A stretch of 64,000 bases of DNA from an uncultured Oscillospiraceae bacterium (GCA_964485605.1 CAZALQ010000001.1:604-64603), one strand, 5' to 3'. Counted from the stretch's first letter, positions 12,586-62,310 are shown. Made by a program: numbers and translations. The notes: generated by a model not told the origin, from the sequence alone.

Positions 12586-12628
12586 ATTATACTATATATT
12601 CTTATTTATGTAAATAATATATTTAGAT
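12586..12628 (-). promoter_or_regulatory. Minus-strand promoter (TTTACA-17-TATAAT) overlapped by 21-bp inverted-repeat operator
   Basis: -10 at 12586-12591 and -35 at 12609-12614 (reverse complement). The operator atgTAAATAataTATTTAGAT at 12608-12628 differs by 1 nt from the copy at 52092-52112. Confidence 0.5.
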
Positions 12629-12707
12629 TAAATATATTTAGCCTATTCTTCGCCTTCCAAGGCAAACAAAAAATCGCCTATCTCAAGGCGATTGCTGTGA
12701 TGTAAAG

Positions 12708-14694: not shown

Positions 14695-15303
14695 TTGATA
14701 CAGAAACTTCATTTCAGAAAAGAAATTTTAGCAGACGTCGATACCAGCGTCCTAATAAAAGAAAACCTTTCATATCAGATCATCTCAAAAGCAAGATCCG
14801 GCATGTCTCTCGCACTAGATGATTTACTTAAGTTTGCAGAACATTTTAAAACAAACATCAGTTATCTGTTTTGTCTTACCGAAGACAGTTCTCCTTTGGA
14901 CTATTATACGCTCGACGAGAGAAGATTCAGATTCAACTCGATAAAAGAGGAACAAAAAGAAAGGTCCCGTGTCGTATCGATCATTGAGGCCACTGGGATC
15001 AGCTCTGCAACTCTTACTAAGATCACAAAAGGTGATTTGCCAAAGAAACTTGCACCTTTATTTAGCTATGCAGAATATTTCGGAGTCTCCCTTGATTACC
15101 TCTACGGTCTTACATACAAAAGGCAATGGGGAGAGCCTTATACTCCCCCTCCTTTAGGCTCTGTTATCTCGTTTGTACAAAATGGGACTCCCTGCTTTGC
15201 TGTAGTCACTCTCAATGGCAGGATCAAAACGACACTTGGAAACGAATTTTCCATGATCGATTTTTGCGAAAAACGAATAAATTATGTGGAGGTGGTAAGG
15301 TGA
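14695..15303 (+). CDS. Putative DNA-binding protein with two XRE-like HTH repeats
   Basis: TTG start with RBS ggagg. Two similar segments end in ...FAEHFKTNISYLFCLTED and ...YAEYFGVSLDYLYGLT, typical of XRE HTH C-terminal ends. Confidence 0.55.
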   Translation: MIQKLHFRKEILADVDTSVLIKENLSYQIISKARSGMSLALDDLLKFAEHFKTNISYLFCLTEDSSPLDYYTLDERRFRFNSIKEEQKERSRVVSIIEATGISSATLTKITKGDLPKKLAPLFSYAEYFGVSLDYLYGLTYKRQWGEPYTPPPLGSVISFVQNGTPCFAVVTLNGRIKTTLGNEFSMIDFCEKRINYVEVVR

Positions 15304-16527: not shown

Positions 16528-16579
16528 ATCTAAATATCTTATTTAGATTATTGACATTGTTTCTCCTTTGAGGTATAAT
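16528..16579 (+). promoter_or_regulatory. Operator inverted repeat + consensus sigma-A promoter
   Basis: ATCTAAATAtctTATTTAGAT (16528-16548) is followed by ta and then TTGACA (16551-16556), a 17-nt spacer and TATAAT (16574-16579). Confidence 0.65.
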
Positions 16580-16630: not shown

Positions 16631-17242
16631 ATGTTAAAAGAGAATTCACAAATCATCAAAATAGATGCCAAAAACGTTTTTCTTGACGTAAGAGAGGCAT
16701 TCGTAATAGATAGGGTCGTGCTTCAGTTTAGAAGATATGACCAATCTCTTTCAAAGGGGAACAAAATCACTCAGTCTATAGATTATTATCTTTCCCTTGA
16801 AGATTTCGCATATCTTTGCTATGTTTTTTATAGTGGAGGGATAAATAAGATCCTGCAAAAGCAAAGTTATGTAAACTACAGTGGTTCCGTAAAAAACGGA
16901 AAGGTCATTTCAAGAATACTTAAGATCGAAGGTGGACAGGACGACAAATTTTTTGTAAAGGCCCAGTCGGGACCGGGAAAAAAGACCGCAACCGGTGCAA
17001 TTTCCCCAGTATTCGGTGACAAACCCGATACAGAAATAGTAATAAAACTGTCCTCAGAACAAATAAAGAAGTTTGGTCTTGCTGGCGAGCGAGCCTTAAG
17101 GATCCGGGACATGTGGGTCGCAATGGGAGTTCTTGACGAAAAATGTGAAGCTCTCCGGTTCAAAAAGATAGAATTCGAAGAGCCCATAAGAAAAATCCCG
17201 GCTCCGGTATATGAAGGCTCTGCAGCTCTTGACCTGTTTTAG
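16631..17242 (+). CDS. Hypothetical 203-aa protein
   Basis: RBS aaggag. First gene of the operator-controlled operon. Confidence 0.6.
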   Translation: MLKENSQIIKIDAKNVFLDVREAFVIDRVVLQFRRYDQSLSKGNKITQSIDYYLSLEDFAYLCYVFYSGGINKILQKQSYVNYSGSVKNGKVISRILKIEGGQDDKFFVKAQSGPGKKTATGAISPVFGDKPDTEIVIKLSSEQIKKFGLAGERALRIRDMWVAMGVLDEKCEALRFKKIEFEEPIRKIPAPVYEGSAALDLF

Positions 17243-20097: not shown

Positions 20098-20251
20098 TTG
20101 ACTTAAAGTTAAATTCAGTGTAATATACCTATAGTTTATATTTTACTATTCTGGCGGCTTTAGCAAGCCGGATATCATCTGTTAAAAACAACTGTTAATC
20201 GTAGCACACCTTAAGGAAGGTATTTATACCTTTCTTGCGGTGTGTTTTTTT
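20098..20251 (+). promoter_or_regulatory. Module A: promoter TTGACT-17-TAATAT, conserved structured leader, intrinsic terminator
   Basis: -35 at 20098-20103 and -10 at 20121-20126. P1 hairpin CGGCTT/AAGCCG at 20155-20170. Conserved block GGATATCATCTGTTAAAAACAACTGTTAATCGTA at 20170-20203. Terminator at 20205-20251. Confidence 0.6.
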
Positions 20252-20282
20252 ATTTTGCTAATCGAGAATAGGAGGAAATGTA

Positions 20283-20594
20283 ATGCTCGAAATTAACCAA
20301 ATCTCCCTAACGGGAGAAATCGTCAGTGGCGAAAAAAACGACAAGGGTCTCTATCTTAAAGTCAGGCAAATGGTCGGAGGAAAGATGGAAACAATCTTCA
20401 CAGTCTTTGTTCCATCCAAAGCAAACCCAACCGCTCAGAACTTCAGGGAAAAGGACCTGGTACTCATCAACAACGGCCTTATCTATAGGAACGCAGAAGG
20501 TGAAGTCACCATCAGAGTCACCCGCTCTGACCAGCTTCAGATGATAAAGAAATGCCTTGATATGGGGCAGATCTCCGCAGAAGAAGTATTTTAA
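20283..20594 (+). CDS. Small OB-fold, SSB-like protein (candidate)
   Basis: 103 aa. The N-terminus INQISLTGEIV resembles the first SSB strand. RBS ggagg lies 7 nt upstream. Assignment is tentative. Confidence 0.4.
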   Translation: MLEINQISLTGEIVSGEKNDKGLYLKVRQMVGGKMETIFTVFVPSKANPTAQNFREKDLVLINNGLIYRNAEGEVTIRVTRSDQLQMIKKCLDMGQISAEEVF

Positions 20595-20608: not shown

Positions 20609-20661
20609 TGTTAATCGGAAAACAGATCGCAGCCATAAATGATTGGCGGCGTTTTTGTTTT
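20609..20661 (+). terminator. TGTTAATCGGA box + imperfect hairpin + T-tract between the OB-fold gene and the AAA gene
   Basis: cgcagcca-taaatgat-tggcggcg pairs at 7 of 8 positions and is followed by tttttgtttt. Confidence 0.4.
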
Positions 20662-20679: not shown

Positions 20680-22626
20680 ATGGAACAAATCAAAACAGAC
20701 GCCTCTCTTTGGGGGTGGAAAAGTAAAACCGCTCTTGTACATCCTTTTGATCTGGTTGCAGACAAAAATGGACTCCCTGGCTATATCTTCAGGACAGGCA
20801 CTCCTGCAGGCAGCAGTATACGGCCGATCCCAGATTATATTAAGGCATTGGTCTACTATACTACTAGTTCAAACAGGCGCGAGGAAACAGGCTATGATCT
20901 GCCCGTGCCGGACCATCTTGCAATAGGGACGAAATCATTAAAAGGGTCCTCTGAGACAATCTTTGTCGAGTACAGGGAAAAACCCGGGGTCCCAACTGAC
21001 TGCATCATGTTTACCCTGGACACCGGCGAACTTAAAGGATGCCGCATCCACACAAAAAGCATTGAAACGGAAAGTTTTCGTCTTCAAAACCCCATCACAG
21101 GGGAAAAGGACGGAACAGCCGTATTTCTTGCTGTTCTTGTACGCGCTCTTTCCCATCCGGAAATGTCAAAGACCCTTCTTGATTGCATTAGTCAAATAGA
21201 AGGTATTCGAGATATTATTGCACCTCCGGGCAGTATAGATAAGATCTACAGGGGATATCTCTTAACCGCATGTGCAGAACTCTATGATGCATGCTGTATT
21301 TCAAAAGATCTAAACCTTCAGTGGCCCGATTCCGGAAGAGCGATTCCAAAGATCACAAAAAAGGACATCAGCAAGGGAATCGCATGTCCCTCTCCTGAAA
21401 AGGTACTTCTCGGCGAGTTTGAAACCCTTATCCCGACTGACGAAGGCGAAAGCATCGTTTTTCAGCCCGAAAAGTATAAAGGGAAGCTATTCCCAGGAAG
21501 AGTATACACAGAAGCTGAAAAACGTCTTATTCCATCTCTTCCCTCTGACTTCTTTGTTACAAAGCAGCTTATTGACATCCTTGATTCTGTTCTTGAAACA
21601 AAGGACGACTTTAAAGCAGCAAAAATCACACAGATTCTTTTGGAGGGTTCAGCAGGATCAGGTAAATCAGCCTCAGCAAGAGCTATATGTGCCATTTTCG
21701 GTCTCCCTATGGAGGTCTACACCTGCGGGGATAGAGACACTAAAGAGGAGATGGTACAGGTCATCATGCCTGACGTCTCTTCGTCTGACATAAAAGAAAT
21801 TTCGGAGAAAGAGAAGAAGCTTCTTGAAACCTTTACGAGAGAACAGGATACAGGAGATTTCGACGAATCTCTAAGACTTCTTGGTCTTCCGACTTATGAG
21901 GAATGTAGGCTTGACGCAGCCGTAGCCTTTGAGGAGATCACCGGTAACTTTGACGAATCTGTCGACACATCCGATGTTTATAGACTCGCCGTTGACAAAG
22001 CTTTATCTTCGGTGAAAAGTCTTATCAGAAAGATTCCTTCTTCTCAAGGTGTTAAGTATAAGAGCATAAAGTCTGCGATTATAAGGGCGATAGAACACGG
22101 ACACTGCCTTGTGTTTGAAGAAGTCGGAAATCTGCGTGATGCAGGTGCCCTTTCTTTCTTTAACGACGTATTCGACAAGGAAGGCACAGGTATCATCAAT
22201 ACAATGTACGGTGATATCAAAAGGCACCCCGACTTCATGATGATCGGAACAACAAATCGACCGGAAGACCCTGGCGTTCATGTAATGAACCCTGCATTTA
22301 GGTCAAGATTTCAGTATTTCGCAACATTTGATGATCTGTCCACTGAAACTCTTATGGGCATCGTCGAAAAAAAATGCGAGATTACAGATCCCGACCTTCT
22401 GAGAAGCATTGTCGAGGTCTACCAAAGAGCTGAGCAGGCAGGAAGAGATGTAGGCGCACATGCATATTTGACAATGAGATCCCTTTATCCGTTCGCAATG
22501 GCTATAAAAAGAGGCAAAGACCCTCAAAAGAGTTTTTGTCACTATATACTCAATGCCATTACTACGGTGCAGGATCAAATGGACGATATAGAATCCTCCA
22601 TTTCAGACTGCGCTCTGTTCCAGTAA
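20680..22626 (+). CDS. AAA+ ATPase (MoxR/CbbQ-like AAA_5 core) with about 330-aa unknown N-terminal domain
   Basis: The ATG at 20680 follows aggaagg. Walker A is LLEGSAGSGKS, Walker B is CLVFEEVGN, followed by PAFRSRF. The listed start at 20557 is rejected. Confidence 0.7.
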   Translation: MEQIKTDASLWGWKSKTALVHPFDLVADKNGLPGYIFRTGTPAGSSIRPIPDYIKALVYYTTSSNRREETGYDLPVPDHLAIGTKSLKGSSETIFVEYREKPGVPTDCIMFTLDTGELKGCRIHTKSIETESFRLQNPITGEKDGTAVFLAVLVRALSHPEMSKTLLDCISQIEGIRDIIAPPGSIDKIYRGYLLTACAELYDACCISKDLNLQWPDSGRAIPKITKKDISKGIACPSPEKVLLGEFETLIPTDEGESIVFQPEKYKGKLFPGRVYTEAEKRLIPSLPSDFFVTKQLIDILDSVLETKDDFKAAKITQILLEGSAGSGKSASARAICAIFGLPMEVYTCGDRDTKEEMVQVIMPDVSSSDIKEISEKEKKLLETFTREQDTGDFDESLRLLGLPTYEECRLDAAVAFEEITGNFDESVDTSDVYRLAVDKALSSVKSLIRKIPSSQGVKYKSIKSAIIRAIEHGHCLVFEEVGNLRDAGALSFFNDVFDKEGTGIINTMYGDIKRHPDFMMIGTTNRPEDPGVHVMNPAFRSRFQYFATFDDLSTETLMGIVEKKCEITDPDLLRSIVEVYQRAEQAGRDVGAHAYLTMRSLYPFAMAIKRGKDPQKSFCHYILNAITTVQDQMDDIESSISDCALFQ

Positions 22627-24817: not shown

Positions 24818-24888
24818 TTTTATGTCAATCGTATTATTTTGCCAAAGGGAGATAAGCCTCCCTTTGGCAACGAAAAAGGAGATCCAAA

Positions 24889-25419: not shown

Positions 25420-25576
25420 TTGACATCTTTCCATAGATAAGATAATATATCTGTAGTTTATTTTTTTACATTCCATCAGCACACTATGTGCAAGGTGGAT
25501 ATTAGTCGTTAAAAAACATGTTAATCGTAATGCACAGTAAACAGGGCCTTTGGGTCCTGTTTCTGTGTATTTTTTT
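25420..25576 (+). promoter_or_regulatory. Module B: promoter TTGACA-17-TAATAT, conserved structured leader, intrinsic terminator
   Basis: -35 at 25420-25425 and -10 at 25443-25448. P1 is CCATC..GCACA-cta-TGTGC..GGTGG at 25473-25498. The block GGATATTAGTCGTTAAAAAACATGTTAATCGTA follows. Terminator at 25532-25576. Confidence 0.6.
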
Positions 25577-25598
25577 GTTAATCGCAAAGGAGGAAAAG

Positions 25599-25835
25599 AT
25601 GAAAACAGGAAAAGGCTATCTCAGGAGATTGCCGGATGGTTTTTCAAAAGGAAGCTATTTCGGTTTTACCCTGAAAAAAAACTTTCTCTATGGAGAATCA
25701 GATGTCGGCACGCCTATCGCGTGCTGTGTGGATAACCCAGACGGAAAGTGTTATCTGTATACTTATTCAGATAACATATGGCAGAAATCTGACGTGGAGT
25801 TCAAAGATGTTCTCAGTCTGATCTGCGAAAACTAA
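25599..25835 (+). CDS. Hypothetical 78-aa protein
   Basis: The ATG at 25599 follows aaaggagg. The listed start at 25518 would cross the leader terminator and is rejected. Confidence 0.5.
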   Translation: MKTGKGYLRRLPDGFSKGSYFGFTLKKNFLYGESDVGTPIACCVDNPDGKCYLYTYSDNIWQKSDVEFKDVLSLICEN

Positions 25836-25862
25836 TCTTTTTGTTATTTATCGTGTATAGGC

Positions 25863-25925
25863 AATCGCAATACGCACTTCTTATGCAGTAAAAGAAAAAA
25901 CTGCACGCACGGGAAGTGTTTTTTT
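25863..25925 (+). terminator. CAATCGCA box + bulged hairpin + T7
   Basis: cacttc..tgcag-loop-ctgca..gaagtg is followed by ttttttt. It lies between the 78-aa gene and the next gene. Confidence 0.4.
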
Positions 25926-30575: not shown

Positions 30576-30605
30576 ATGAGTCCTCTATTTGAGGGCTCAT
30601 TTTTT
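30576..30605 (+). terminator. Intrinsic terminator
   Basis: atgagtcctc-tattt-gagggctcat followed by ttttt. Confidence 0.7.
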
Positions 30606-32016
30606 ATATCTCGTATGTTGTTATTTCTTCACAATCCCCCTGGATGATGGCATTCCATATCATCCTTCTGCAGAATGCAATAGGATATTTGGGTTGACTT
30701 ATGTTTGCCGCCTCTTTATAAATTTCCTTTGTTCTCTCCATAAGGGTCATTATTGTTGGATTACCGGTAATGTAGTCTTTTGATATGAACTTTGATACCC
30801 CTCTTCTTATGTCTTCGCTTGATACAACAATATTCTCGTACTCTTGGCCTTTTCTGTCTGATAGCATTGATGTAAGTGCTGATTTAAACAATTCTGGGAA
30901 AGACTTATTAAAACCTTCAAGAGATGAGTATAAATCTTCATGCCCGGCATAAGTACATAATAGATCAACAGCAAGTTTTATTAATTTTTTGTTATTAAGG
31001 TACTCCTCAGGAATCTCATTGAATGAAGATATCTCAGAAAGAATTTCATCCTTCCCTCTCTCCTCTTTTGTTATAGTTTCGTTAGAATGAGAGATAGATT
31101 GTTTATTATATATACTGTTTTTTATAATATTATTATTTTTAGCTTCCGGAATTTGCGTTTCCGATGTTTGCACTTCCGTTTTTTGCGCTTCCGAAAAATC
31201 AACGCACGGTGACTCAGTTATATTAGAGCTTTCTTTTGAATCCTCATTTTGCGCTTCCGGAATTTGCGCTTCCGGAAAATCAACGCACGGTGATTTTATA
31301 ATATCCCCTTCTTTTTTATTCGGAATAACAGGGTTTTCGTTTATTGTATATAGACAGCTGCCGAATTTCCCGCCAGAGGTTGTTTGGGTAACGGTTATAA
31401 GTCCATATGAAGTAAGGGATTTCATATAAGTTCTATATGCACTGTCTGAAATATGAAGAAAATACAAAATATCCTTTTTCTTAGGAAAAGCTGTGTTACC
31501 GGATCCTGCAAATGAGCAAAAAAATGCATATAGTGCCTTTTCTTTCAGGTCTAGTCTGCTATCAATCATCACAGCTTTTGGAATGGTGCCATACCCTCCA
31601 GCTTTTATGCCCTCGGTCAGAACTCTGTCTTTATCGGCATGTAGGTTGTCATAAGAAAGTGTTTTGTATTTTTTGGGGCAAGAAATAAGAGTGTATATAT
31701 TCTTCTGAAATCCATGGCCATTACCGCCGAGATTTCTCTTTTCAACGGAGATATATCCCTCAGTTTCTAGGACCTTAAAATATTTAAAATATGTTTCTTT
31801 GTTTATCTTCAGATCATGGACTATCTTTTCCCAGCCAGGAAAAGCAGTGTTGCCAGATCCGGCATAAGAGTAAAAGTAAGCACATATCCCTTTAGAAGCA
31901 ATTGGAAGCTTATCGTCAATCATTATAAGTTTTGGGATAATGCCAAATCCTTTAAAATTGACCCCTTCTACCCGTAATTCATCTATAAAATTGTCGAAAA
32001 TGTCCATATTATTCAT
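30604..32016 (-). CDS. Rep-like protein with two tandem winged-HTH (HTH_36-like) repeats, repetitive linker and C-terminal domain
   Basis: The segments FGIIPKLIMIDDKLPIASKGICAYFYSYAGSGNTAFPGWEKI and YGTIPKAVMIDSRLDLKEKALYAFFCSFAGSGNTAFPKKKDI are duplicated. The start is uncertain: ATG at 32016 or 32007, with the listed TTG at 32064. Confidence 0.55.
   Translation of the reverse strand: MNNMDIFDNFIDELRVEGVNFKGFGIIPKLIMIDDKLPIASKGICAYFYSYAGSGNTAFPGWEKIVHDLKINKETYFKYFKVLETEGYISVEKRNLGGNGHGFQKNIYTLISCPKKYKTLSYDNLHADKDRVLTEGIKAGGYGTIPKAVMIDSRLDLKEKALYAFFCSFAGSGNTAFPKKKDILYFLHISDSAYRTYMKSLTSYGLITVTQTTSGGKFGSCLYTINENPVIPNKKEGDIIKSPCVDFPEAQIPEAQNEDSKESSNITESPCVDFSEAQKTEVQTSETQIPEAKNNNIIKNSIYNKQSISHSNETITKEERGKDEILSEISSFNEIPEEYLNNKKLIKLAVDLLCTYAGHEDLYSSLEGFNKSFPELFKSALTSMLSDRKGQEYENIVVSSEDIRRGVSKFISKDYITGNPTIMTLMERTKEIYKEAANISQPKYPIAFCRRMIWNAIIQGDCEEITTYEI
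31142..31293. repeat. Iteron-like direct repeats / TTCCGGAA palindromes inside the Rep-like gene
   Basis: The unit TTGCG(C/T)TTCCG(G)AA occurs at least 6 times. The 25-nt repeat cttccgAAAAATCAACGCACGGTGA at 31188-31212 recurs at 31269-31293. Confidence 0.6.
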
Positions 32017-32229
32017 CGGATAGTATTGACACTTTCGCCCCGATTTTCTATAATTGAGGTACAAAAAACCAGAGCGGTGAAGAGCCGCACATAAAATAAA
32101 TTGAATAACAAAGAATTTGGGAGAAGGAACAAGTTGCAGCTTGATCCTTTTTTCTTTGTCTTTAATGCATTTTAATCATAAAATCGGATAATTGTCAATA
32201 AAAAATCAAAATGTTCCTAATACCCGCAC

Positions 32230-35596: not shown

Positions 35597-35747
35597 TTGA
35601 CATACATTCATTTCGTGATATACTCAAGATACAGTTAATTGTTTTACATTCCGTTTGCATGTGCAGGACGGATATCATCTGTTAAAAATTTTGTTAATCG
35701 TAACACACTAAAGAAAGGTGCGAGCCTTTCTTCCAGTGTGTTTTTTT
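35597..35747 (+). promoter_or_regulatory. Module C: promoter TTGACA-16-TATACT (TG-extended), conserved structured leader, intrinsic terminator
   Basis: -35 at 35597-35602 and -10 at 35619-35624. P1 is CCGT..GCA-tg-TGC..ACGG at 35651-35671. The block GGATATCATCTGTTAAAAATTTTGTTAATCGTA lies at 35670-35703. The terminator at 35703-35747 has perfect stems. Confidence 0.65.
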
Positions 35748-35780
35748 ATTGTCTATTCGAAAACAGGAGGATTAATCGTT

Positions 35781-36800
35781 ATGACAGACAAGAAAAAACA
35801 GATTCGCTATGGCGAAAACTATGATGTGTTTTCACATCTCAGCAATGCTCAAAAAGAGGATGGGAAGCCAGCCTATGAAGTGTACCAAGTAGACGGTGTA
35901 CTTCAGACTTATGACTCGCCAGATGGAAAAGGAAGATTCCTTTATGTTCCAGTCTATACCATTGACGGCAACACTATGAAGGACTGGTTCCACACTGTGT
36001 TTAAAGATGGCCGTGTCGAGACCATAAGGCATACTGCTCCGGCTGTTTATGATCAAGATCGTAAGATATGGGTTGAACCGCCAGAGGTTGTAGAGGTAAG
36101 ACTTTATAAGAACATGGATGATGAACACTATCTTGCAAACGGTTTTGCTAAAGTGCAAATCGTCGAAGGAAGTAAATATCCAGAACTACCCTCGGCAGCA
36201 ACAATGGCATTTAAAAATGCTATGTCAAATGCAGGTTTTGGTGTCGATATAGACTGGGAGACAGTTTACAAGAATGCTCCGAAGTTCTTCCATGTAACCG
36301 AGTCTGACGAACCTGCTCTATATGTTCCGGTAAATACTACATCGCCAGGGACTAAAGCAGTTGAGTTTGATGAGAGTGCACACGAAATACCAATGGCGAG
36401 GACAGAAGAAAAGACAGTAAAGGAAAGTGTTTTAGAGGGGCAGACCTCTCTTGATCTTTCAGATCCCCTTCTTGCAGCATTGTCTTCTTCAGGGAAAGAG
36501 CATTCGATTTCGGAAGAAGAACTTGCAGGAACAAAAGGACCTACTGCGGCTTCTGAGACAGAAGAGAAAGCTGAGGTGCTTGGCACAAAAATGACGAAGG
36601 AAGATGCTCTTGATACAGTCTTCTTTGCAGTCAATAAACAGAACATGCTCATCTACAATAACAAAACATTCAGAGAAAATCTGGAGCAGTATCCTGAAGA
36701 TTTTAGGAGTCTTATTGAAATGATAGCTTTGAAGCAGGATATCTACAAAAGGTGGATCGCAAATGATGTTCTAGAGGCGGCTGAGGCACTGACAGCGTAG
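35781..36800 (+). CDS. Candidate Rad52/Sak-like single-strand annealing protein with acidic C-terminal tail
   Basis: The ATG at 35781 follows aggagg. AATMAFKNAMSNAGFGVDI resembles the Rad52-family A..A.KRA...FG.G motif. Assignment is tentative. Confidence 0.35.
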   Translation: MTDKKKQIRYGENYDVFSHLSNAQKEDGKPAYEVYQVDGVLQTYDSPDGKGRFLYVPVYTIDGNTMKDWFHTVFKDGRVETIRHTAPAVYDQDRKIWVEPPEVVEVRLYKNMDDEHYLANGFAKVQIVEGSKYPELPSAATMAFKNAMSNAGFGVDIDWETVYKNAPKFFHVTESDEPALYVPVNTTSPGTKAVEFDESAHEIPMARTEEKTVKESVLEGQTSLDLSDPLLAALSSSGKEHSISEEELAGTKGPTAASETEEKAEVLGTKMTKEDALDTVFFAVNKQNMLIYNNKTFRENLEQYPEDFRSLIEMIALKQDIYKRWIANDVLEAAEALTA

Positions 36801-50819: not shown

Positions 50820-52082
50820 ATGTATAGAGCTAAACTTGAAAAGATGAAGAAAAAGCAGCTTCTAGAAGAAGCCGATAAGTTTCCAGGCAGAGCTGATGTC
50901 AAAGACTCAGATACTATTCCTGTTATTATCGACAAGCTGGTCCTTGCAGACATAAGTAAGCCAAGCAAGATCGAGCAGTATAAAACGGCTAAAACAGAAG
51001 TCTCTGGTTTTACAAAGCAATATGGCGATGACTATGAACTCAGCACGGTTGGTCTTATCTCGGAAGAGGAGCTTTTATCTCCGGAAGAGCGTGCAGAAAG
51101 AGAACTTAGAGATAACTATGCAAGGCCTGACAGTTCACCGCTTAAGGCAGTTATCACAGGATATGAAAAGATGCTCGCAGATGAAGGAGAAGCATTCTTC
51201 GTCATTCATGCAAGCTATGGTGAAGCACAAAGAGAGATCCTTGTTCCTTTCGAAGAGTATGTCCTGGAAGTTAGATCTGAAGTCGTTAAAAGACTTGCAT
51301 CAGAGAACGCCAATAGGGCGAATGATAATGCATGCGAGACTGTTGATCCTAAGAAGATGTCCGACAGAGAAATAAGGACATACATCGAAAAAAGAGCAGG
51401 AACACACTTTAACTTTACAGTGACCGATGTTGACGAGGATGAAGGTGGATACATACTCGGATCGAGAGTCAAGGCTGCAGAAAAAGATAAAATAATGTGG
51501 CAAAGAGTCGTAGGAATCGGGGCACATAAAGGAGAATATCTCATAAGAGAGGGAAGGACTATTACATGTGAGATCATGGCGGTACTTCCTTATGGCATCT
51601 ATGTAGATATTTATGGATATGAATTCTTTGTTCCTAAATGTGAACTGGAATATATTCAGCGAATTAACCTCACAGGGAAATATAGACCTGGTCAATATAT
51701 AAAGCTGCTTATAAAAAGTATAACAAGAGACGAAAAAGGCCATTTCCTAAAGGCTGCTCTTTCAAAGATCGACCTTAATACAGGGAAAACCCCTCAACAG
51801 GACGCTGCAGAAAAACTCAGGAAAAATCAGATCGTATTCGGGACTGTAATAGACAGAGAAATGGATCTGAAAGGAAAAGTCAGATATTATGTACTGTACC
51901 GTGGATGTCTTCAAATTGCATGTTACCTTGACGACAGGCTATCTATAAACGTAAAGATTGGAGATGAAGTTAAGATCAAGATCTCTGAGTCGATACCGGA
52001 AACAGGACAGGCAAGGGGATATATTCAGCACGTGACTCCGAACTTCGAGGCCATAGACCCTAAGAATTGGAGTGACTTATAA
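50820..52082 (+). CDS. Protein with SAP/Rho-N-like N-terminus and two S1-like RNA-binding domains (tentative)
   Basis: LEKMKKKQLLEEADKF at the N-terminus. GRTITCEIMAVLPYGIYVDIYGYEFFVPKCELEY and NQIVFGTVIDREM... resemble S1/OB motifs. Confidence 0.45.
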   Translation: MYRAKLEKMKKKQLLEEADKFPGRADVKDSDTIPVIIDKLVLADISKPSKIEQYKTAKTEVSGFTKQYGDDYELSTVGLISEEELLSPEERAERELRDNYARPDSSPLKAVITGYEKMLADEGEAFFVIHASYGEAQREILVPFEEYVLEVRSEVVKRLASENANRANDNACETVDPKKMSDREIRTYIEKRAGTHFNFTVTDVDEDEGGYILGSRVKAAEKDKIMWQRVVGIGAHKGEYLIREGRTITCEIMAVLPYGIYVDIYGYEFFVPKCELEYIQRINLTGKYRPGQYIKLLIKSITRDEKGHFLKAALSKIDLNTGKTPQQDAAEKLRKNQIVFGTVIDREMDLKGKVRYYVLYRGCLQIACYLDDRLSINVKIGDEVKIKISESIPETGQARGYIQHVTPNFEAIDPKNWSDL

Positions 52083-52091
52083 ATGTATTTT

Positions 52092-52143
52092 ATCTAAATA
52101 ATATATTTAGATTATTGACATTTCTTTTATTAAGTGTTATAGA
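52092..52143 (+). promoter_or_regulatory. Operator inverted repeat + promoter of the sigma-factor gene
   Basis: ATCTAAATAataTATTTAGAT (52092-52112) is followed by ta, TTGACA (52115-52120), a 17-nt spacer and TATAGA (52138-52143) with TG extension. The geometry is identical to 16528-16579. Confidence 0.65.
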
Positions 52144-52192
52144 TAAAACAGAGAAAGGTTTTATCTATGATAAACCCTTAAGGGAGATGCCA

Positions 52193-52738
52193 ATGAAAAC
52201 TATAGATAAGGAAAAACTTATAGAAGAAAACCTCGGGCTTGTAGGATACACGCTTTCGCTCCTCAACGTAAGAGAACTCTTAAGAAAAAATGATAGGCTT
52301 ACCTATGAGGATTTATTCCAGGAAGGTTGCCTTGCTCTTTGCAACGCAGCTATGGCATATGACAGCAAAAAAGGAGCCTTCTCTACACTTGCAGTCATAA
52401 GTATAAAGAGGCATATTATTGGACTTGTTAGGAAGGAATCCGGGAGCAAAAGATATGCACATAGCAGCGCTATATCAATCGAGACAGAAGAAGGGATTTC
52501 TCTTCTTGACAAGCTTCCCGGGAAGACAGTATCTGACATGCTCTCATATACAGCTCTAAAAGAGGAGGTTTTAAAAAAGGCAGAAGAACTAGGTGTCTGC
52601 TCAGAAGCCAGAGCAATGATCTATTCTCAGGAGGAAAAGATCACCCTTGCAAAGGCATGCAGGGAACTTGGTCTTATCTATAAAACGACACAAAAAAGAA
52701 TACAGAGACTAAAAAAAGTTTTGACAAGTGAGGCGTAG
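52193..52738 (+). CDS. Sigma-70-family RNA polymerase sigma factor (small, regions 2 and 4)
   Basis: Region 2 is DLFQEGCLALCNAAMAYDSKKGAFSTLAVISIKRHI. The region-4 HTH is ITLAKACRELGLIYKTTQKRIQRLKK. The ATG at 52193 lies 7 nt after gggag. Confidence 0.75.
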   Translation: MKTIDKEKLIEENLGLVGYTLSLLNVRELLRKNDRLTYEDLFQEGCLALCNAAMAYDSKKGAFSTLAVISIKRHIIGLVRKESGSKRYAHSSAISIETEEGISLLDKLPGKTVSDMLSYTALKEEVLKKAEELGVCSEARAMIYSQEEKITLAKACRELGLIYKTTQKRIQRLKKVLTSEA

Positions 52739-60054: not shown

Positions 60055-60285
60055 CAACAATTATCTGATATTAAAAATTTTACAGATTTAGGGATACATT
60101 TATTAAATATATGCATATAAAACATAATGGGAATAAGATGTTAAATATAACATCATTTTAGGCGATATAGATAACATTCGAGTATATAAATATCATATTT
60201 GGAGATGACTATAAAAACCAAACCGGGGTATTGCTAAATTAGAAAATAACTATTCATTTGTGACAGACAAGGGGAAGTGAGATAC

Positions 60286-62310
60286 ATGCCGAAAAAGAAA
60301 AAGATAGAAACTGAAGAAGTAAAAAAAATCGAAGAAGCTGTAGCAGCCGGATCCGAAGAAAAGATCACCCCTGAAGAGGTTGTAAAACCTGAATCTACAG
60401 ATAACATCACTGAGTCAGAAAACACAGATAAGACCGAAGAGATTTTATCTACAGATTCAAAGATTGAGCGTTCCTATGAGCCCGCCCAGGCGCCAGAAGA
60501 TCATGAACCAGAAGAAAAGATGACTGAAGAAGTAAGCAGTGACACATCTGAGAATGCTACAGAGGAATCAGAAGATAGCGCGGAAGAGCCTCCAAAGAAG
60601 AAGGGCAAAGGCTGGATAATTCTTCTCATACTTTTGCTTGTCTTAGGAGCTGGTGGCTACTACGCATATACTCAAGGGTATCTTGATAAGTGGCTAAATC
60701 CTGATGCAAGTACACCTGAGGAAGTCTGCACCGATATGGCCAAGGAGCTTCTTGAGGCAAAAACGCTTGAGGAATACCTGGAACTTGGAAAGAACTCGCC
60801 TCTTGAGACAAGAGCTAACTGGTTCTACAAAGAAGAAGCAAAGAACAGTAAGCTCGACGCATACAAAGATATCATCGATGTCACATCCGAAAAGCTTAAG
60901 TATAAGGTCGGAGCAGCAACTCTTTCAGAAGACGGAAAGAGGGTAACGGTTTCCTTTACCATTACAGGTAAGAACTTAGAACATGTACCCATCGATGCTG
61001 CAGCGACAGTTGAGATGGCTATCAAGGCAAGGGAGACCCTAAACGGCCTTAGGTCTTCTTTGGGAGCTTCTGTCATTAACTTCAACAGCAGCCTGCCGGA
61101 CAAAGACAAAGAAGAAAAGAGCATTACTGCAGCAGATCTTCTTACGAAGGAGGTGCTGCAGAGGGCTATAGAAAATGTCGATGACATTCTTACAGGTAAA
61201 GTAAACGAAGGCAAGGCCGATAAGGATAAGATCACTCTCACAGAAGAAGAGCAGGAAAGCTATGCACAGAGAAAAGCTTACCTGGAAGCACTTCTTATAG
61301 ATGCTGATGCCGTTTCAGTTCTTACAGGTGAGACAGAAAGCATCCGCCTTTCCGATAAAGAGATCGAAGATCTTTATTTCAAAGCTCTCCTTGAGGAAGT
61401 CAAGAAACAAATAAAAAAAGCTGACGATCTTAAGGCTGAAGTCAATATGTATTTCGAGCAGGATACTGAAGGACAGTGGCAGTTTGCCGGCATGGATACC
61501 ATTGACTACAGCAAGGTATTCTTTGCGAATCTCCTTGGTGGATCCGAAATGGAAAGAGAAAGGGTCAAAGGCTTTGCAGGTGATTCGGATGTAACAGAGT
61601 TTACCGAGGACATCAAGGGAAGCATCCCTGACCTTCTTCTTGCAGCCAAAGCTCAGCTCGACGAGGAAAAGGCAAAAGAGAAGGAGAAAGAAAATCAGGG
61701 TGATGAGAACCAGGGCGGTACCACACCGGGCGGAAATACTAATCCTGGAGGCTCAGGAGGTCCAAGCGGATCTGGTGGCTCCGGCGGAAGTGGAGGTTCC
61801 GGCGGTTCCGGCGGATCATCCGGTGGCTCAGGTGGAAGCGGCGGCTCAGGCGGTTCCGGTGGTTCCGGAGGTAGCGGTGGATCCGGTGGAGGAGGCGGAG
61901 GAAGTACAACTCCAACACCACCCCCACAGCCGGTACATACTCATACATGGGACCCGTATATCGTATCAGTATCTCATCCCGGTGTAGGACACTATGAGAA
62001 CAGAATGACCCAGCAGGCTTGGGACGAGCCGATATATGGTGAAAAAGTAAAATGTAATGCATGCGGAGAGTTATTTAATACAAGTACGGAGGCTGCACAC
62101 CACTGTGTAGATGCTCATGGTGGCGGGAATTACTCCGTTGTATGGGTCGTCATCGACTACACTCATCACGATGCGGTCTACGAAGACGTCTGGGTTTGGG
62201 ATCAGGAACCGTATAACGAAGATGTGATCAAGTATTACAAGTGCACAGGCTGCGGAATGTACAGCTACGACAAGATAACAGCGTACTATTCCTGGGAATT
62301 TGGTTTTTAA
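60286..62310 (+). CDS. Membrane-anchored protein: acidic N-tail, one TM, helical ectodomain, Gly/Ser linker, Cys/His-rich C-terminal domain
   Basis: The ATG at 60286 follows ggggaag. TM segment GWIILLILLLVLGAGGYYAY. Also CNACGELFNTSTEAAHHCVDAH and CTGCG. Confidence 0.65.
   Translation: MPKKKKIETEEVKKIEEAVAAGSEEKITPEEVVKPESTDNITESENTDKTEEILSTDSKIERSYEPAQAPEDHEPEEKMTEEVSSDTSENATEESEDSAEEPPKKKGKGWIILLILLLVLGAGGYYAYTQGYLDKWLNPDASTPEEVCTDMAKELLEAKTLEEYLELGKNSPLETRANWFYKEEAKNSKLDAYKDIIDVTSEKLKYKVGAATLSEDGKRVTVSFTITGKNLEHVPIDAAATVEMAIKARETLNGLRSSLGASVINFNSSLPDKDKEEKSITAADLLTKEVLQRAIENVDDILTGKVNEGKADKDKITLTEEEQESYAQRKAYLEALLIDADAVSVLTGETESIRLSDKEIEDLYFKALLEEVKKQIKKADDLKAEVNMYFEQDTEGQWQFAGMDTIDYSKVFFANLLGGSEMERERVKGFAGDSDVTEFTEDIKGSIPDLLLAAKAQLDEEKAKEKEKENQGDENQGGTTPGGNTNPGGSGGPSGSGGSGGSGGSGGSGGSSGGSGGSGGSGGSGGSGGSGGSGGGGGGSTTPTPPPQPVHTHTWDPYIVSVSHPGVGHYENRMTQQAWDEPIYGEKVKCNACGELFNTSTEAAHHCVDAHGGGNYSVVWVVIDYTHHDAVYEDVWVWDQEPYNEDVIKYYKCTGCGMYSYDKITAYYSWEFGF
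61747..61905 (+). repeat. In-frame tandem GGx/AGy repeat encoding a 53-residue Gly/Ser linker
   Basis: Encodes GGSGGPSGSGGSGGSGGSGGSGGSSGGSGGSGGSGGSGGSGGSGGSGGGGGGS from imperfect 9/18-nt DNA repeats. Confidence 0.85.

Follow-up and report, generated by a model that had tools for sequence, protein, structure and literature searches.

The window, by which we mean the whole 64-kb stretch of DNA analyzed here, carries a conjugative element with genes for a VirB4-like ATPase, a coupling protein, an M23 peptidase, ParA/ParB, a DnaD/HTH_36-type protein, a topoisomerase, a DUF3854 primase, an S1-domain protein, a sigma-70-family factor and an HTH protein. Three co-directional operons for DNA handling each start with a leader: operon A encodes a 103-aa protein, an AAA ATPase, a VWA protein and a 156-aa protein, operon B a 78-aa protein, a 376-aa protein, a YqaJ nuclease and a RecD2 helicase, and operon C a 339-aa protein and the primase of the DUF3854 type. 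Of the labels that an earlier note had given to operon B, YqaJ and RecD2 were confirmed, but "DUF932-like" found no support, as there is no Pfam match to DUF932. A Pfam search up to E=10 with the 376-aa protein and four orthologues returned a single, unrelated match (E=0.11), and a homologue search with this protein returned only the protein itself. The left 11 kb of the window looks chromosomal or like cargo; the genes between 463 and 10731 code for a RecG helicase, DcuC/GntP-type transporters, a MerR regulator and a URO-D-like protein and have the look of host chromosome or cargo. The core shared with related elements starts at about 12.6-14.7 kb, therefore the element is possibly integrated, or else a plasmid with cargo.

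Leader B, one of the three copies, spans positions 25420-25601 on the plus strand. Its promoter (25420..25448) consists of a -35 box TTGACA (25420-25425), a 17-nt spacer and a -10 box TAATAT (25443-25448), and is followed by the start region with an AU-rich 5' segment (25449..25472), which is conserved as (T)GTAGTTTAT...TTTTACATT and contains a TAGTTT-type motif seen again in related elements. The next part is a hairpin termed P1 (25473..25498, CCATC.GCACA-cta-TGTGC..GGTGG), and this is followed by a conserved block, GGATATTAGTCGTTAAAAAACATGTTAATCGTA (25497..25529), which is mostly unpaired by prediction and comprises the sub-segments UGUUAAUCG and GGAUAUCAUCUG. The 3' part of the block is the motif TGTTAATCG, which directly abuts an intrinsic terminator, ATGCACAG.AAACAGGGCC-tttg-GGTCCTGTTT.CTGTGTAT (25530-25570), with a stem of about 19 bp, a tetraloop, a dG of about -27 kcal/mol and a run of seven T at 25570-25576. 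A second copy of TGTTAATCG lies directly 3' of this T-run (25576-25584), followed by the RBS AGGAGG (25588-25593) and the ATG of the 78-aa gene (25599), the first gene of operon B.

The two other copies are built in the same order, i.e. sigma-70-type promoter, an AU-rich 5' end of about 20 nt in the RNA, P1, a block of 33-34 nt, a terminator with U7, RBS and ATG. Leader A (20098-20285, plus strand) has its promoter at 20098-20126, P1 at 20151-20171, the block at 20170-20203, terminator and T7 at 20204-20251, the motif copy TGCTAATCG at 20256-20264, the RBS at 20270-20275 and the ATG at 20283; in leader C (35597-35783, plus strand) promoter, P1, block and terminator with T7 are found at 35597-35624, 35651-35671, 35670-35702 and 35703-35747, and RBS and ATG at 35765-35770 and 35781. 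A repeat search and direct reading agree on exactly three copies in the 64-kb window, all on the plus strand. A covariance model built from the three copies detected no further one with filters switched off, the next match reaching 18 bits (E of about 0.4), and a scan of the window for a sigma-70-type promoter followed by a hairpin with T-run and by an RBS with an ORF of at least 50 codons returned the same three sites only. All three promoters are near-consensus, and all three leaders contain a stem of -20 to -27 kcal/mol followed by T7, as expected of an intrinsic terminator.

P1 together with the terminator is the minimum-energy fold in 3/3 copies (RNAfold), with z-scores of -3.5 to -5.1 against dinucleotide shuffles. 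An RNAalifold analysis, which the earlier note had suggested for an expanded alignment and which we ran on the three copies, yielded 25 consensus pairs with 96% of the cells paired, compared to 29-56% when the 3' partners were slid by 1-3 columns; both sides had changed in nine pairs versus 0-2 with slid partners, and the observed values were matched by 1/500 column shuffles, statistics that are modest as they come from three sequences. As a terminator must be a hairpin anyway, it is P1 alone that is informative beyond the mere presence of terminators. All of its eight pairs are kept (100% paired), two of them with double changes, at a mean pairwise identity of only 50% and with essentially unrelated apical sequences, and its loops vary as well (UAGC, CUA, UG or AUGU). 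The claim that P1 differs between the copies and nevertheless pairs is thereby borne out, and the same is true for the terminator stems, which copies A and C carry as quoted in the earlier note and which show 63% identity. The block between both hairpins, which had been described as constant, is with 86% the best conserved segment of all, ahead of the 5' segment (75%), the segment after the terminator (73%) and the promoter (69%), so that it is under tighter constraint than the promoter within the three copies. Its mean predicted pairing probability is 0.33-0.42, compared to 0.66-0.74 for P1 and 0.80-0.87 for the terminator. Conservation and mostly unpaired predicted state would fit a putative sequence-specific recognition segment.

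We also searched for related elements. No plasmid or phage record matched in a megablast of 11 kb, and identical proteins were found in metagenome contigs only. From AAA ATPase and primase homologues we arrived at syntenic relatives, termed L005/L010 (from an Anaerovoracaceae MAG), L006/L011, L012, L014, L015 and L019/L020; relatives of the AAA ATPase on the genome contigs L008 and L009 were discarded as not syntenic, and none were present in viral contigs. At least six related elements from metagenomes have a promoter, a short leader and an intrinsic terminator in front of the equivalent operons, whereas such units are absent from L016. Leader sequences are similar within one element and strongly diverged between elements: our covariance model (R1) reached only 16-22 bits on the relatives, and a model from L005/L010 (R2) recovered its own three copies and a partial fourth one, with no match in the window. 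An alignment of leaders across elements is unreliable. The partial copy (L005, 14183-14262; 37.9 bits) lies just upstream of leader B', has its own, different terminator and looks like a decaying tandem duplication. The three leaders of L005/L010 have a two-tier P1 with the outer stems ACTCAC/GTGAGT, GCTTG/CGAGC and GCTTC/GAAGC around a conserved inner GAAG/CTTY helix, and this supports P1 independently. As the L006 leaders have no P1, this hairpin is not universally needed. Paralogous sites that are uniform within an element and orthologous sites that drift are the pattern expected of co-evolution with an element-encoded reader. Two further features were observed in these relatives. Upstream of the promoters of the operon B and C leaders in L006 (14700, 14835) and L011 (8325, 8569) there are two copies of a perfect palindrome, TTACTGCACRYGTGCAGTAA, which has no counterpart in the window, and in L012 (743-790, 8875-8920) a second hairpin with T-run (GGYCTTGCAGGAWYCTGCAAGCC TTTTT) directly after the first terminator forms tandem terminators.

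The repeated GTTAA half-sites of the block could also be read in DNA, and the hairpins would form in ssDNA as well. The conserved unit could thus be a signal at the DNA level, with the block as operator or roadblock or with the hairpins acting in ssDNA during conjugative transfer or lagging-strand priming in an ssi/sso-like manner, and a conjugative element with primase, topoisomerase and HTH protein is in line with this idea. However, the spacing of the GTTAA repeats is 12 or 13 nt depending on the copy, and this variation by one nucleotide fits poorly with a site in dsDNA, a dsDNA operator leaves the covariation of P1 unexplained, and the window has a separate and clearly palindromic operator system. 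Furthermore, U-tract, promoter and RBS all belong to the sense strand and are arranged precisely as in a leader. We regard a signal in DNA as very unlikely. This also qualifies the proposal of the earlier note that selection acts on RNA or ssDNA structure plus an unpaired recognition segment: selected pairing and a conserved block predicted to be mostly unpaired were both recovered, but the ssDNA version is disfavored by the layout of promoter, sense U-tract and RBS.

The combination of hairpin, conserved segment and terminator resembles the expression platform of a riboswitch, and zipper-type attenuators, in which an upstream stem is complementary to the terminator at nearly equal energies (cATT, pLS20 family), are located upstream of many conjugation operons of Gram-positive bacteria (PMC13401043). 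A self-contained device of this kind would sense a metabolite, a tRNA or the translation of a leader peptide, and the L015 leaders with their long enclosing helix would suit it. The folding energies speak against it. When the 3' arm of the terminator was blocked in the folding, the most stable alternatives reached -15 to -17 kcal/mol compared to -33 to -41 kcal/mol for the terminator conformers, a gap of 18-25 kcal/mol; the alternatives are unlike between the copies, and the complementarity that defines a zipper is absent. Rfam gave no match at gathering thresholds across the whole window and only noise at E up to 10 (best 10-19 bits versus thresholds of 33-140). The rapid divergence between related elements is also unlike that of ligand-binding aptamers. 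An 8-codon frame (ATG TGC ... TAA) is present in copies B and C, but copy A lacks the start codon, which led us to reject a leader peptide, and by direct reading no copy has a Shine-Dalgarno sequence for this frame. As there is no competing fold, no Rfam match and no start codon in copy A, the riboswitch, leader-peptide and zipper readings are unsupported, and we consider such a device extremely improbable.

Established antitermination signals were compared in the same way. Targets of ANTAR or CAT-PRD (RAT) proteins do not fit, as the hairpin loops comprise 2-4 nt and the window ORFs that were scanned with Pfam contain neither an ANTAR nor a PRD domain; the model for the bglG cis-regulatory element scored 13-17 bits versus a threshold of 80. 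For an RfaH/LoaP-type NusG paralogue with an ops-like site no NGN or KOW domain was detected in the Pfam-scanned ORFs of the window, which is part of a longer source contig. By sequence reading, GGATATCATCTG agrees with the G-10/Y-1/G+1 pause pattern: in GGAUAUCAUCU^G a G is found at -10, a pyrimidine at -1 and a G at +1, with the end of P1 at -10/-11, and we infer that the first 12 nt of the leader B block may fit such a pause. A weak mini-hairpin of 5 bp (UGUUA-AUCG-UARCA) can form in copies A and C only. Long-range pairing of the 5' AGUUUAU with UGUUAAUCGUA is predicted by RNAfold for copy C only and would need mismatches in A and B, and we discarded it as unsupported; an enclosing helix is present in the leaders of L012 and L015 and is the long one mentioned above in the latter. 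A trans-encoded antisense RNA was discarded, as no complementary site in the window rose above background.

The core of the block is TGYYAATCG. The pattern TG[TC][TC]AATCG occurs eight times on the plus strand of the window and never on the minus strand, and TGTTAATCGTA with at most one mismatch matched seven times versus 1.0 expected, a value equalled in 0/100 shuffles. The sites on the plus strand comprise the three in front of the leader terminators as well as 20256, 25576, 20609, 24823 and 38545. Those at 20256 and 25576 are positioned just after the T-run and 8-12 nt upstream of the RBS, and leader C has a degenerate form there. At 20609..20661, between the 103-aa gene and the AAA ATPase gene (likely ATG at 20682), the motif TGTTAATCGG precedes an internal terminator (20628-20661), and at 24823..24870, between the VWA gene and the 156-aa gene, TGTCAATCGTA is followed by a 13-bp hairpin without T-run. 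Operon B has a second terminator 3' of the 78-aa gene, located in front of the 376-aa gene (25861..25925; terminator 25874-25925) and preceded by the degenerate motif GCAATCGCA. The exact block pattern GATATN5GTTAAAAAN3-5TGTTAATCG was not found in genome and viral collections, its sole match in metagenome contigs is a chance hit inside the coding sequence of a signal peptide, and the motif strings gave only unrelated primers in the literature. In 15 leaders from six elements the pattern WGTTWAW, chosen after viewing the sequences, occurs 21 times in sense and twice in antisense orientation (shuffle mean 6.1, maximum 15), whereby copies within one element are not independent.

We sorted the intergenic plus-strand terminators by what comes next, which does not depend on the motif: those with an RBS and a gene directly behind them formed the same-operon class, those with a new promoter or a convergent gene the operon-end class. 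All five terminators of the same-operon class (20245, 20652, 25570, 25919, 35741) have the motif 0-10 nt upstream, in one case in degenerate form, in contrast to none of the four operon-end terminators (25403, 30600, 35063, 38529), which are ordinary hairpins of 8-10 bp. By our own count the Fisher probability of this partition is about 0.008.

The location of the internal terminators after the first small gene of operons A and B, which is also observed in L005 (9935-9985) and L006 (9955-9985) and is conserved in the relatives for operon A, implies that the 103-aa and 78-aa proteins are likely in excess over the downstream enzymes. This is the pattern expected if stoichiometry is tuned, and it would be compatible with the absence of any switch, i.e. 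with leaky and unregulated termination at constitutive partial attenuators that set the ratio between a highly expressed first small gene and lower expressed later genes. UGYYAAUCG beside the hairpin would then be an endonuclease processing site, with RNase Y-type cleavage 5' of the stem-loop that leaves a protective 5' hairpin on the downstream mRNA, or a translation-related element near the RBSs, which would agree with the motif in front of the hairpin without U-tract (24823) and just upstream of two RBSs (20256, 25576). However, U7 terminators of -20 to -27 kcal/mol in front of the first gene would waste most of the transcription from near-consensus promoters, and P1 as well as the conserved first half of the block (GGATATCATCTGTTAAAAA) would have no explanation. 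We judge a switch-free arrangement to be quite unlikely.

A different explanation starts from the position of the leader, directly after the promoter and before the first terminator, in operons with further internal terminators. P1 and block might fold on the nascent RNA, bind their own polymerase and make it resistant to the leader and internal terminators with no dedicated protein, in the style of HK022 put, EAR, Tn916 canT or conAn2. In HK022, a put RNA is made of two neighboring stem-loops and acts on RNA polymerase in cis with no protein involved, and the two put RNAs are paralogous copies with retained pairing. The leaders are likewise short paralogous copies between promoter and terminator whose pairing is kept by compensatory changes. 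Multi-terminator operons with RNA antiterminators are established in Gram-positive conjugative elements (PMC8191782, PMC11658703). In general, conjugative elements of Firmicutes have long co-directional operons with many terminators and are controlled after initiation (PMC8191782, PMC11658703, PMC13401043), and in this respect conAn of pLS20, canT of Tn916 and cATT resemble the situation here. These RNAs comprise 260-600 nt (conAn2 260-600 nt, canT 341-452 nt), are present once per element at the head of the transfer operon, and conAn2 follows the conAn1 gene, whereas the leaders reach their terminator after about 75 nt, are found in three copies per element at the head of DNA-processing operons and are never located downstream of a gene within their own transcript, so that we did not assign them to the conAn2/canT class. 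Compared to the two stem-loops of put, which lacks a conserved single-stranded block, only one conserved but variable hairpin (P1) is predicted in the leaders, none in L006, and the block is predicted to be unstructured. A motif repeated before every internal terminator would be superfluous for a processive RNA and suggests local rather than processive action. In addition, the operon-end terminators do not belong to the long-stem resistant type that has been described (PMC10325885). Taken together, we think that a processive RNA acting in cis is unlikely.

We favor the interpretation that the leaders are factor-dependent antitermination leaders that form a small regulon and gate the three DNA-handling operons, and assign it a probability of roughly 0.45. 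By default, most transcripts would end as an RNA of about 120 nt at the leader terminator, and read-through would need a trans-acting factor, which is most likely element-encoded. This putative factor would recognize the block, whose core UGYYAAUCG immediately adjoins the terminator's 5' arm, and would prevent or bypass the formation of the terminator hairpin. Through the motif copies that precede the internal terminators, this factor would be able to open these as well, and the three DNA-processing operons would be switched on together. P1 and GGAUAUCAUCU^G may act as a hairpin-stabilized pause that gives time for the loading of the factor. The motif after the T-run near the RBS in leaders A and B, degenerate in C, is unexplained by antitermination. 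More tentatively, and with considerable doubt, the leaders could be part of a compact and hitherto undescribed antitermination system of mobile elements, in which a hairpin-stabilized pause would hold the polymerase and an element protein of no known antiterminator family would bind the UGYYAAUCG signal next to every terminator that has to be opened. One factor would then exert local control over leader and internal terminators across the whole regulon, and signal and factor would co-evolve as a specificity pair between related elements, as is the case for N/nut in phages.

Candidates for such a factor were sought among the proteins of the element. Neither a NusG/KOW paralogue nor a Q, N, ANTAR or CAT-PRD domain was detected in the Pfam-scanned ORFs of the window. 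The coupling-protein gene is followed by genes for a protein with an S1 RNA-binding domain (420 aa) and the sigma-70-family factor (207 aa; 50820-52738), and this pair, which is unusual for a transfer region, is also present in the Anaerovoracaceae element (L010, 18696-20988). That the S1-domain protein, conserved beside the coupling-protein gene in the window and in L010, might be the factor is a guess that makes it a candidate only. Searches of PHROGs, NCBIfam and PDB sequences gave weak matches of this protein to ribosomal-protein S1 repeats in NCBIfam as the sole result. The 203-aa protein p203 (16631-17242) shares 61% identity with its counterpart in the L005 element, compared to 30-56% for all other proteins, and had no match in Pfam, PHROGs, NCBIfam or PDB sequences; p131, p103 and p78 gave nothing in PHROGs, NCBIfam and PDB sequence searches. 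AlphaFold models from single sequences were unusable, with a pLDDT of 33 for p203 and 32 for the S1 protein.

By analogy, the nearest functional counterparts of the unit would be the protein-dependent antitermination leaders of Firmicutes and the logic of lambda N/nut or Q/tR', though the unit lacks the features that define either class. HutP/hut, GlpP/glpD, LicT-SacY/RAT, PyrR and the ANTAR targets share with it a constitutive promoter, a short leader and a site that is common to the several operons of a regulon, as well as an RNA segment adjoining or overlapping the terminator's 5' arm; this segment is protein-binding in these systems and putatively so here. In contrast to them, the leaders have no match to RAT, ANTAR dual hexaloops or UAG repeats, a search of the window revealed no cognate protein domain, and the site is located on a mobile element, is specific for this element and recurs at internal terminators and near RBSs. 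The nut site of lambda consists of boxA followed by the boxB hairpin with a conserved loop and acts together with the N protein. Both N/nut and Q with PR'-tR' resemble the present arrangement in the default termination of a short leader from a strong promoter, in paralogous sites within one mobile element, in a specificity that varies between related elements and in a possible promoter-proximal pause for loading. Unlike in boxB, the loop of the leader hairpin is not conserved and the conserved part is single-stranded and located 3' of the hairpin; neither an N-like nor a Q-like gene was found in the window, and on all these grounds we rejected membership in the N/nut class.

The leader family is real and uncurated and would belong to the post-initiation controls of Gram-positive conjugative elements. 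Such control by terminators, attenuators and antiterminators is emerging as a general route to silence the costly genes of these elements, and so far it is known from few large RNAs that head transfer operons, to which the leaders would add a small, multi-copy signal of the regulon type over genes for DNA processing and replication. The host elements are a poorly known group from uncultured anaerobic Firmicutes. With a size of about 120 nt and a 9-nt motif that marks exactly those terminators that have to be passed, the unit is easy to test and could be a genetic part, and finding the factor could reveal a new family of antiterminator proteins.

Besides the leaders, the window has an operator-like palindrome, ATCTAAATA(n)TATTTAGAT, which directly abuts a consensus TTGACA-17-TATAAT promoter at 16528-16579 and 52092-52141, i.e. 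in front of the 203-aa/131-aa/topoisomerase operon and of the sigma-factor gene, with a related copy at 12605-12639. These operators look like a second regulon apart from the leaders, possibly read by the HTH_3 protein encoded at 14695-15303. Tandem 15-nt repeats of the TTTGCGCTTCCG type (31135-31304; five copies and an 81-nt duplication) inside the DnaD/HTH_36-like gene on the minus strand (30604-32064) resemble iterons, so that a replication origin could be located there. A Gly/Ser-rich repeat with a period of 9 nt (61743-61901) within a 677-aa ORF (60277-62310) probably encodes a flexible linker.
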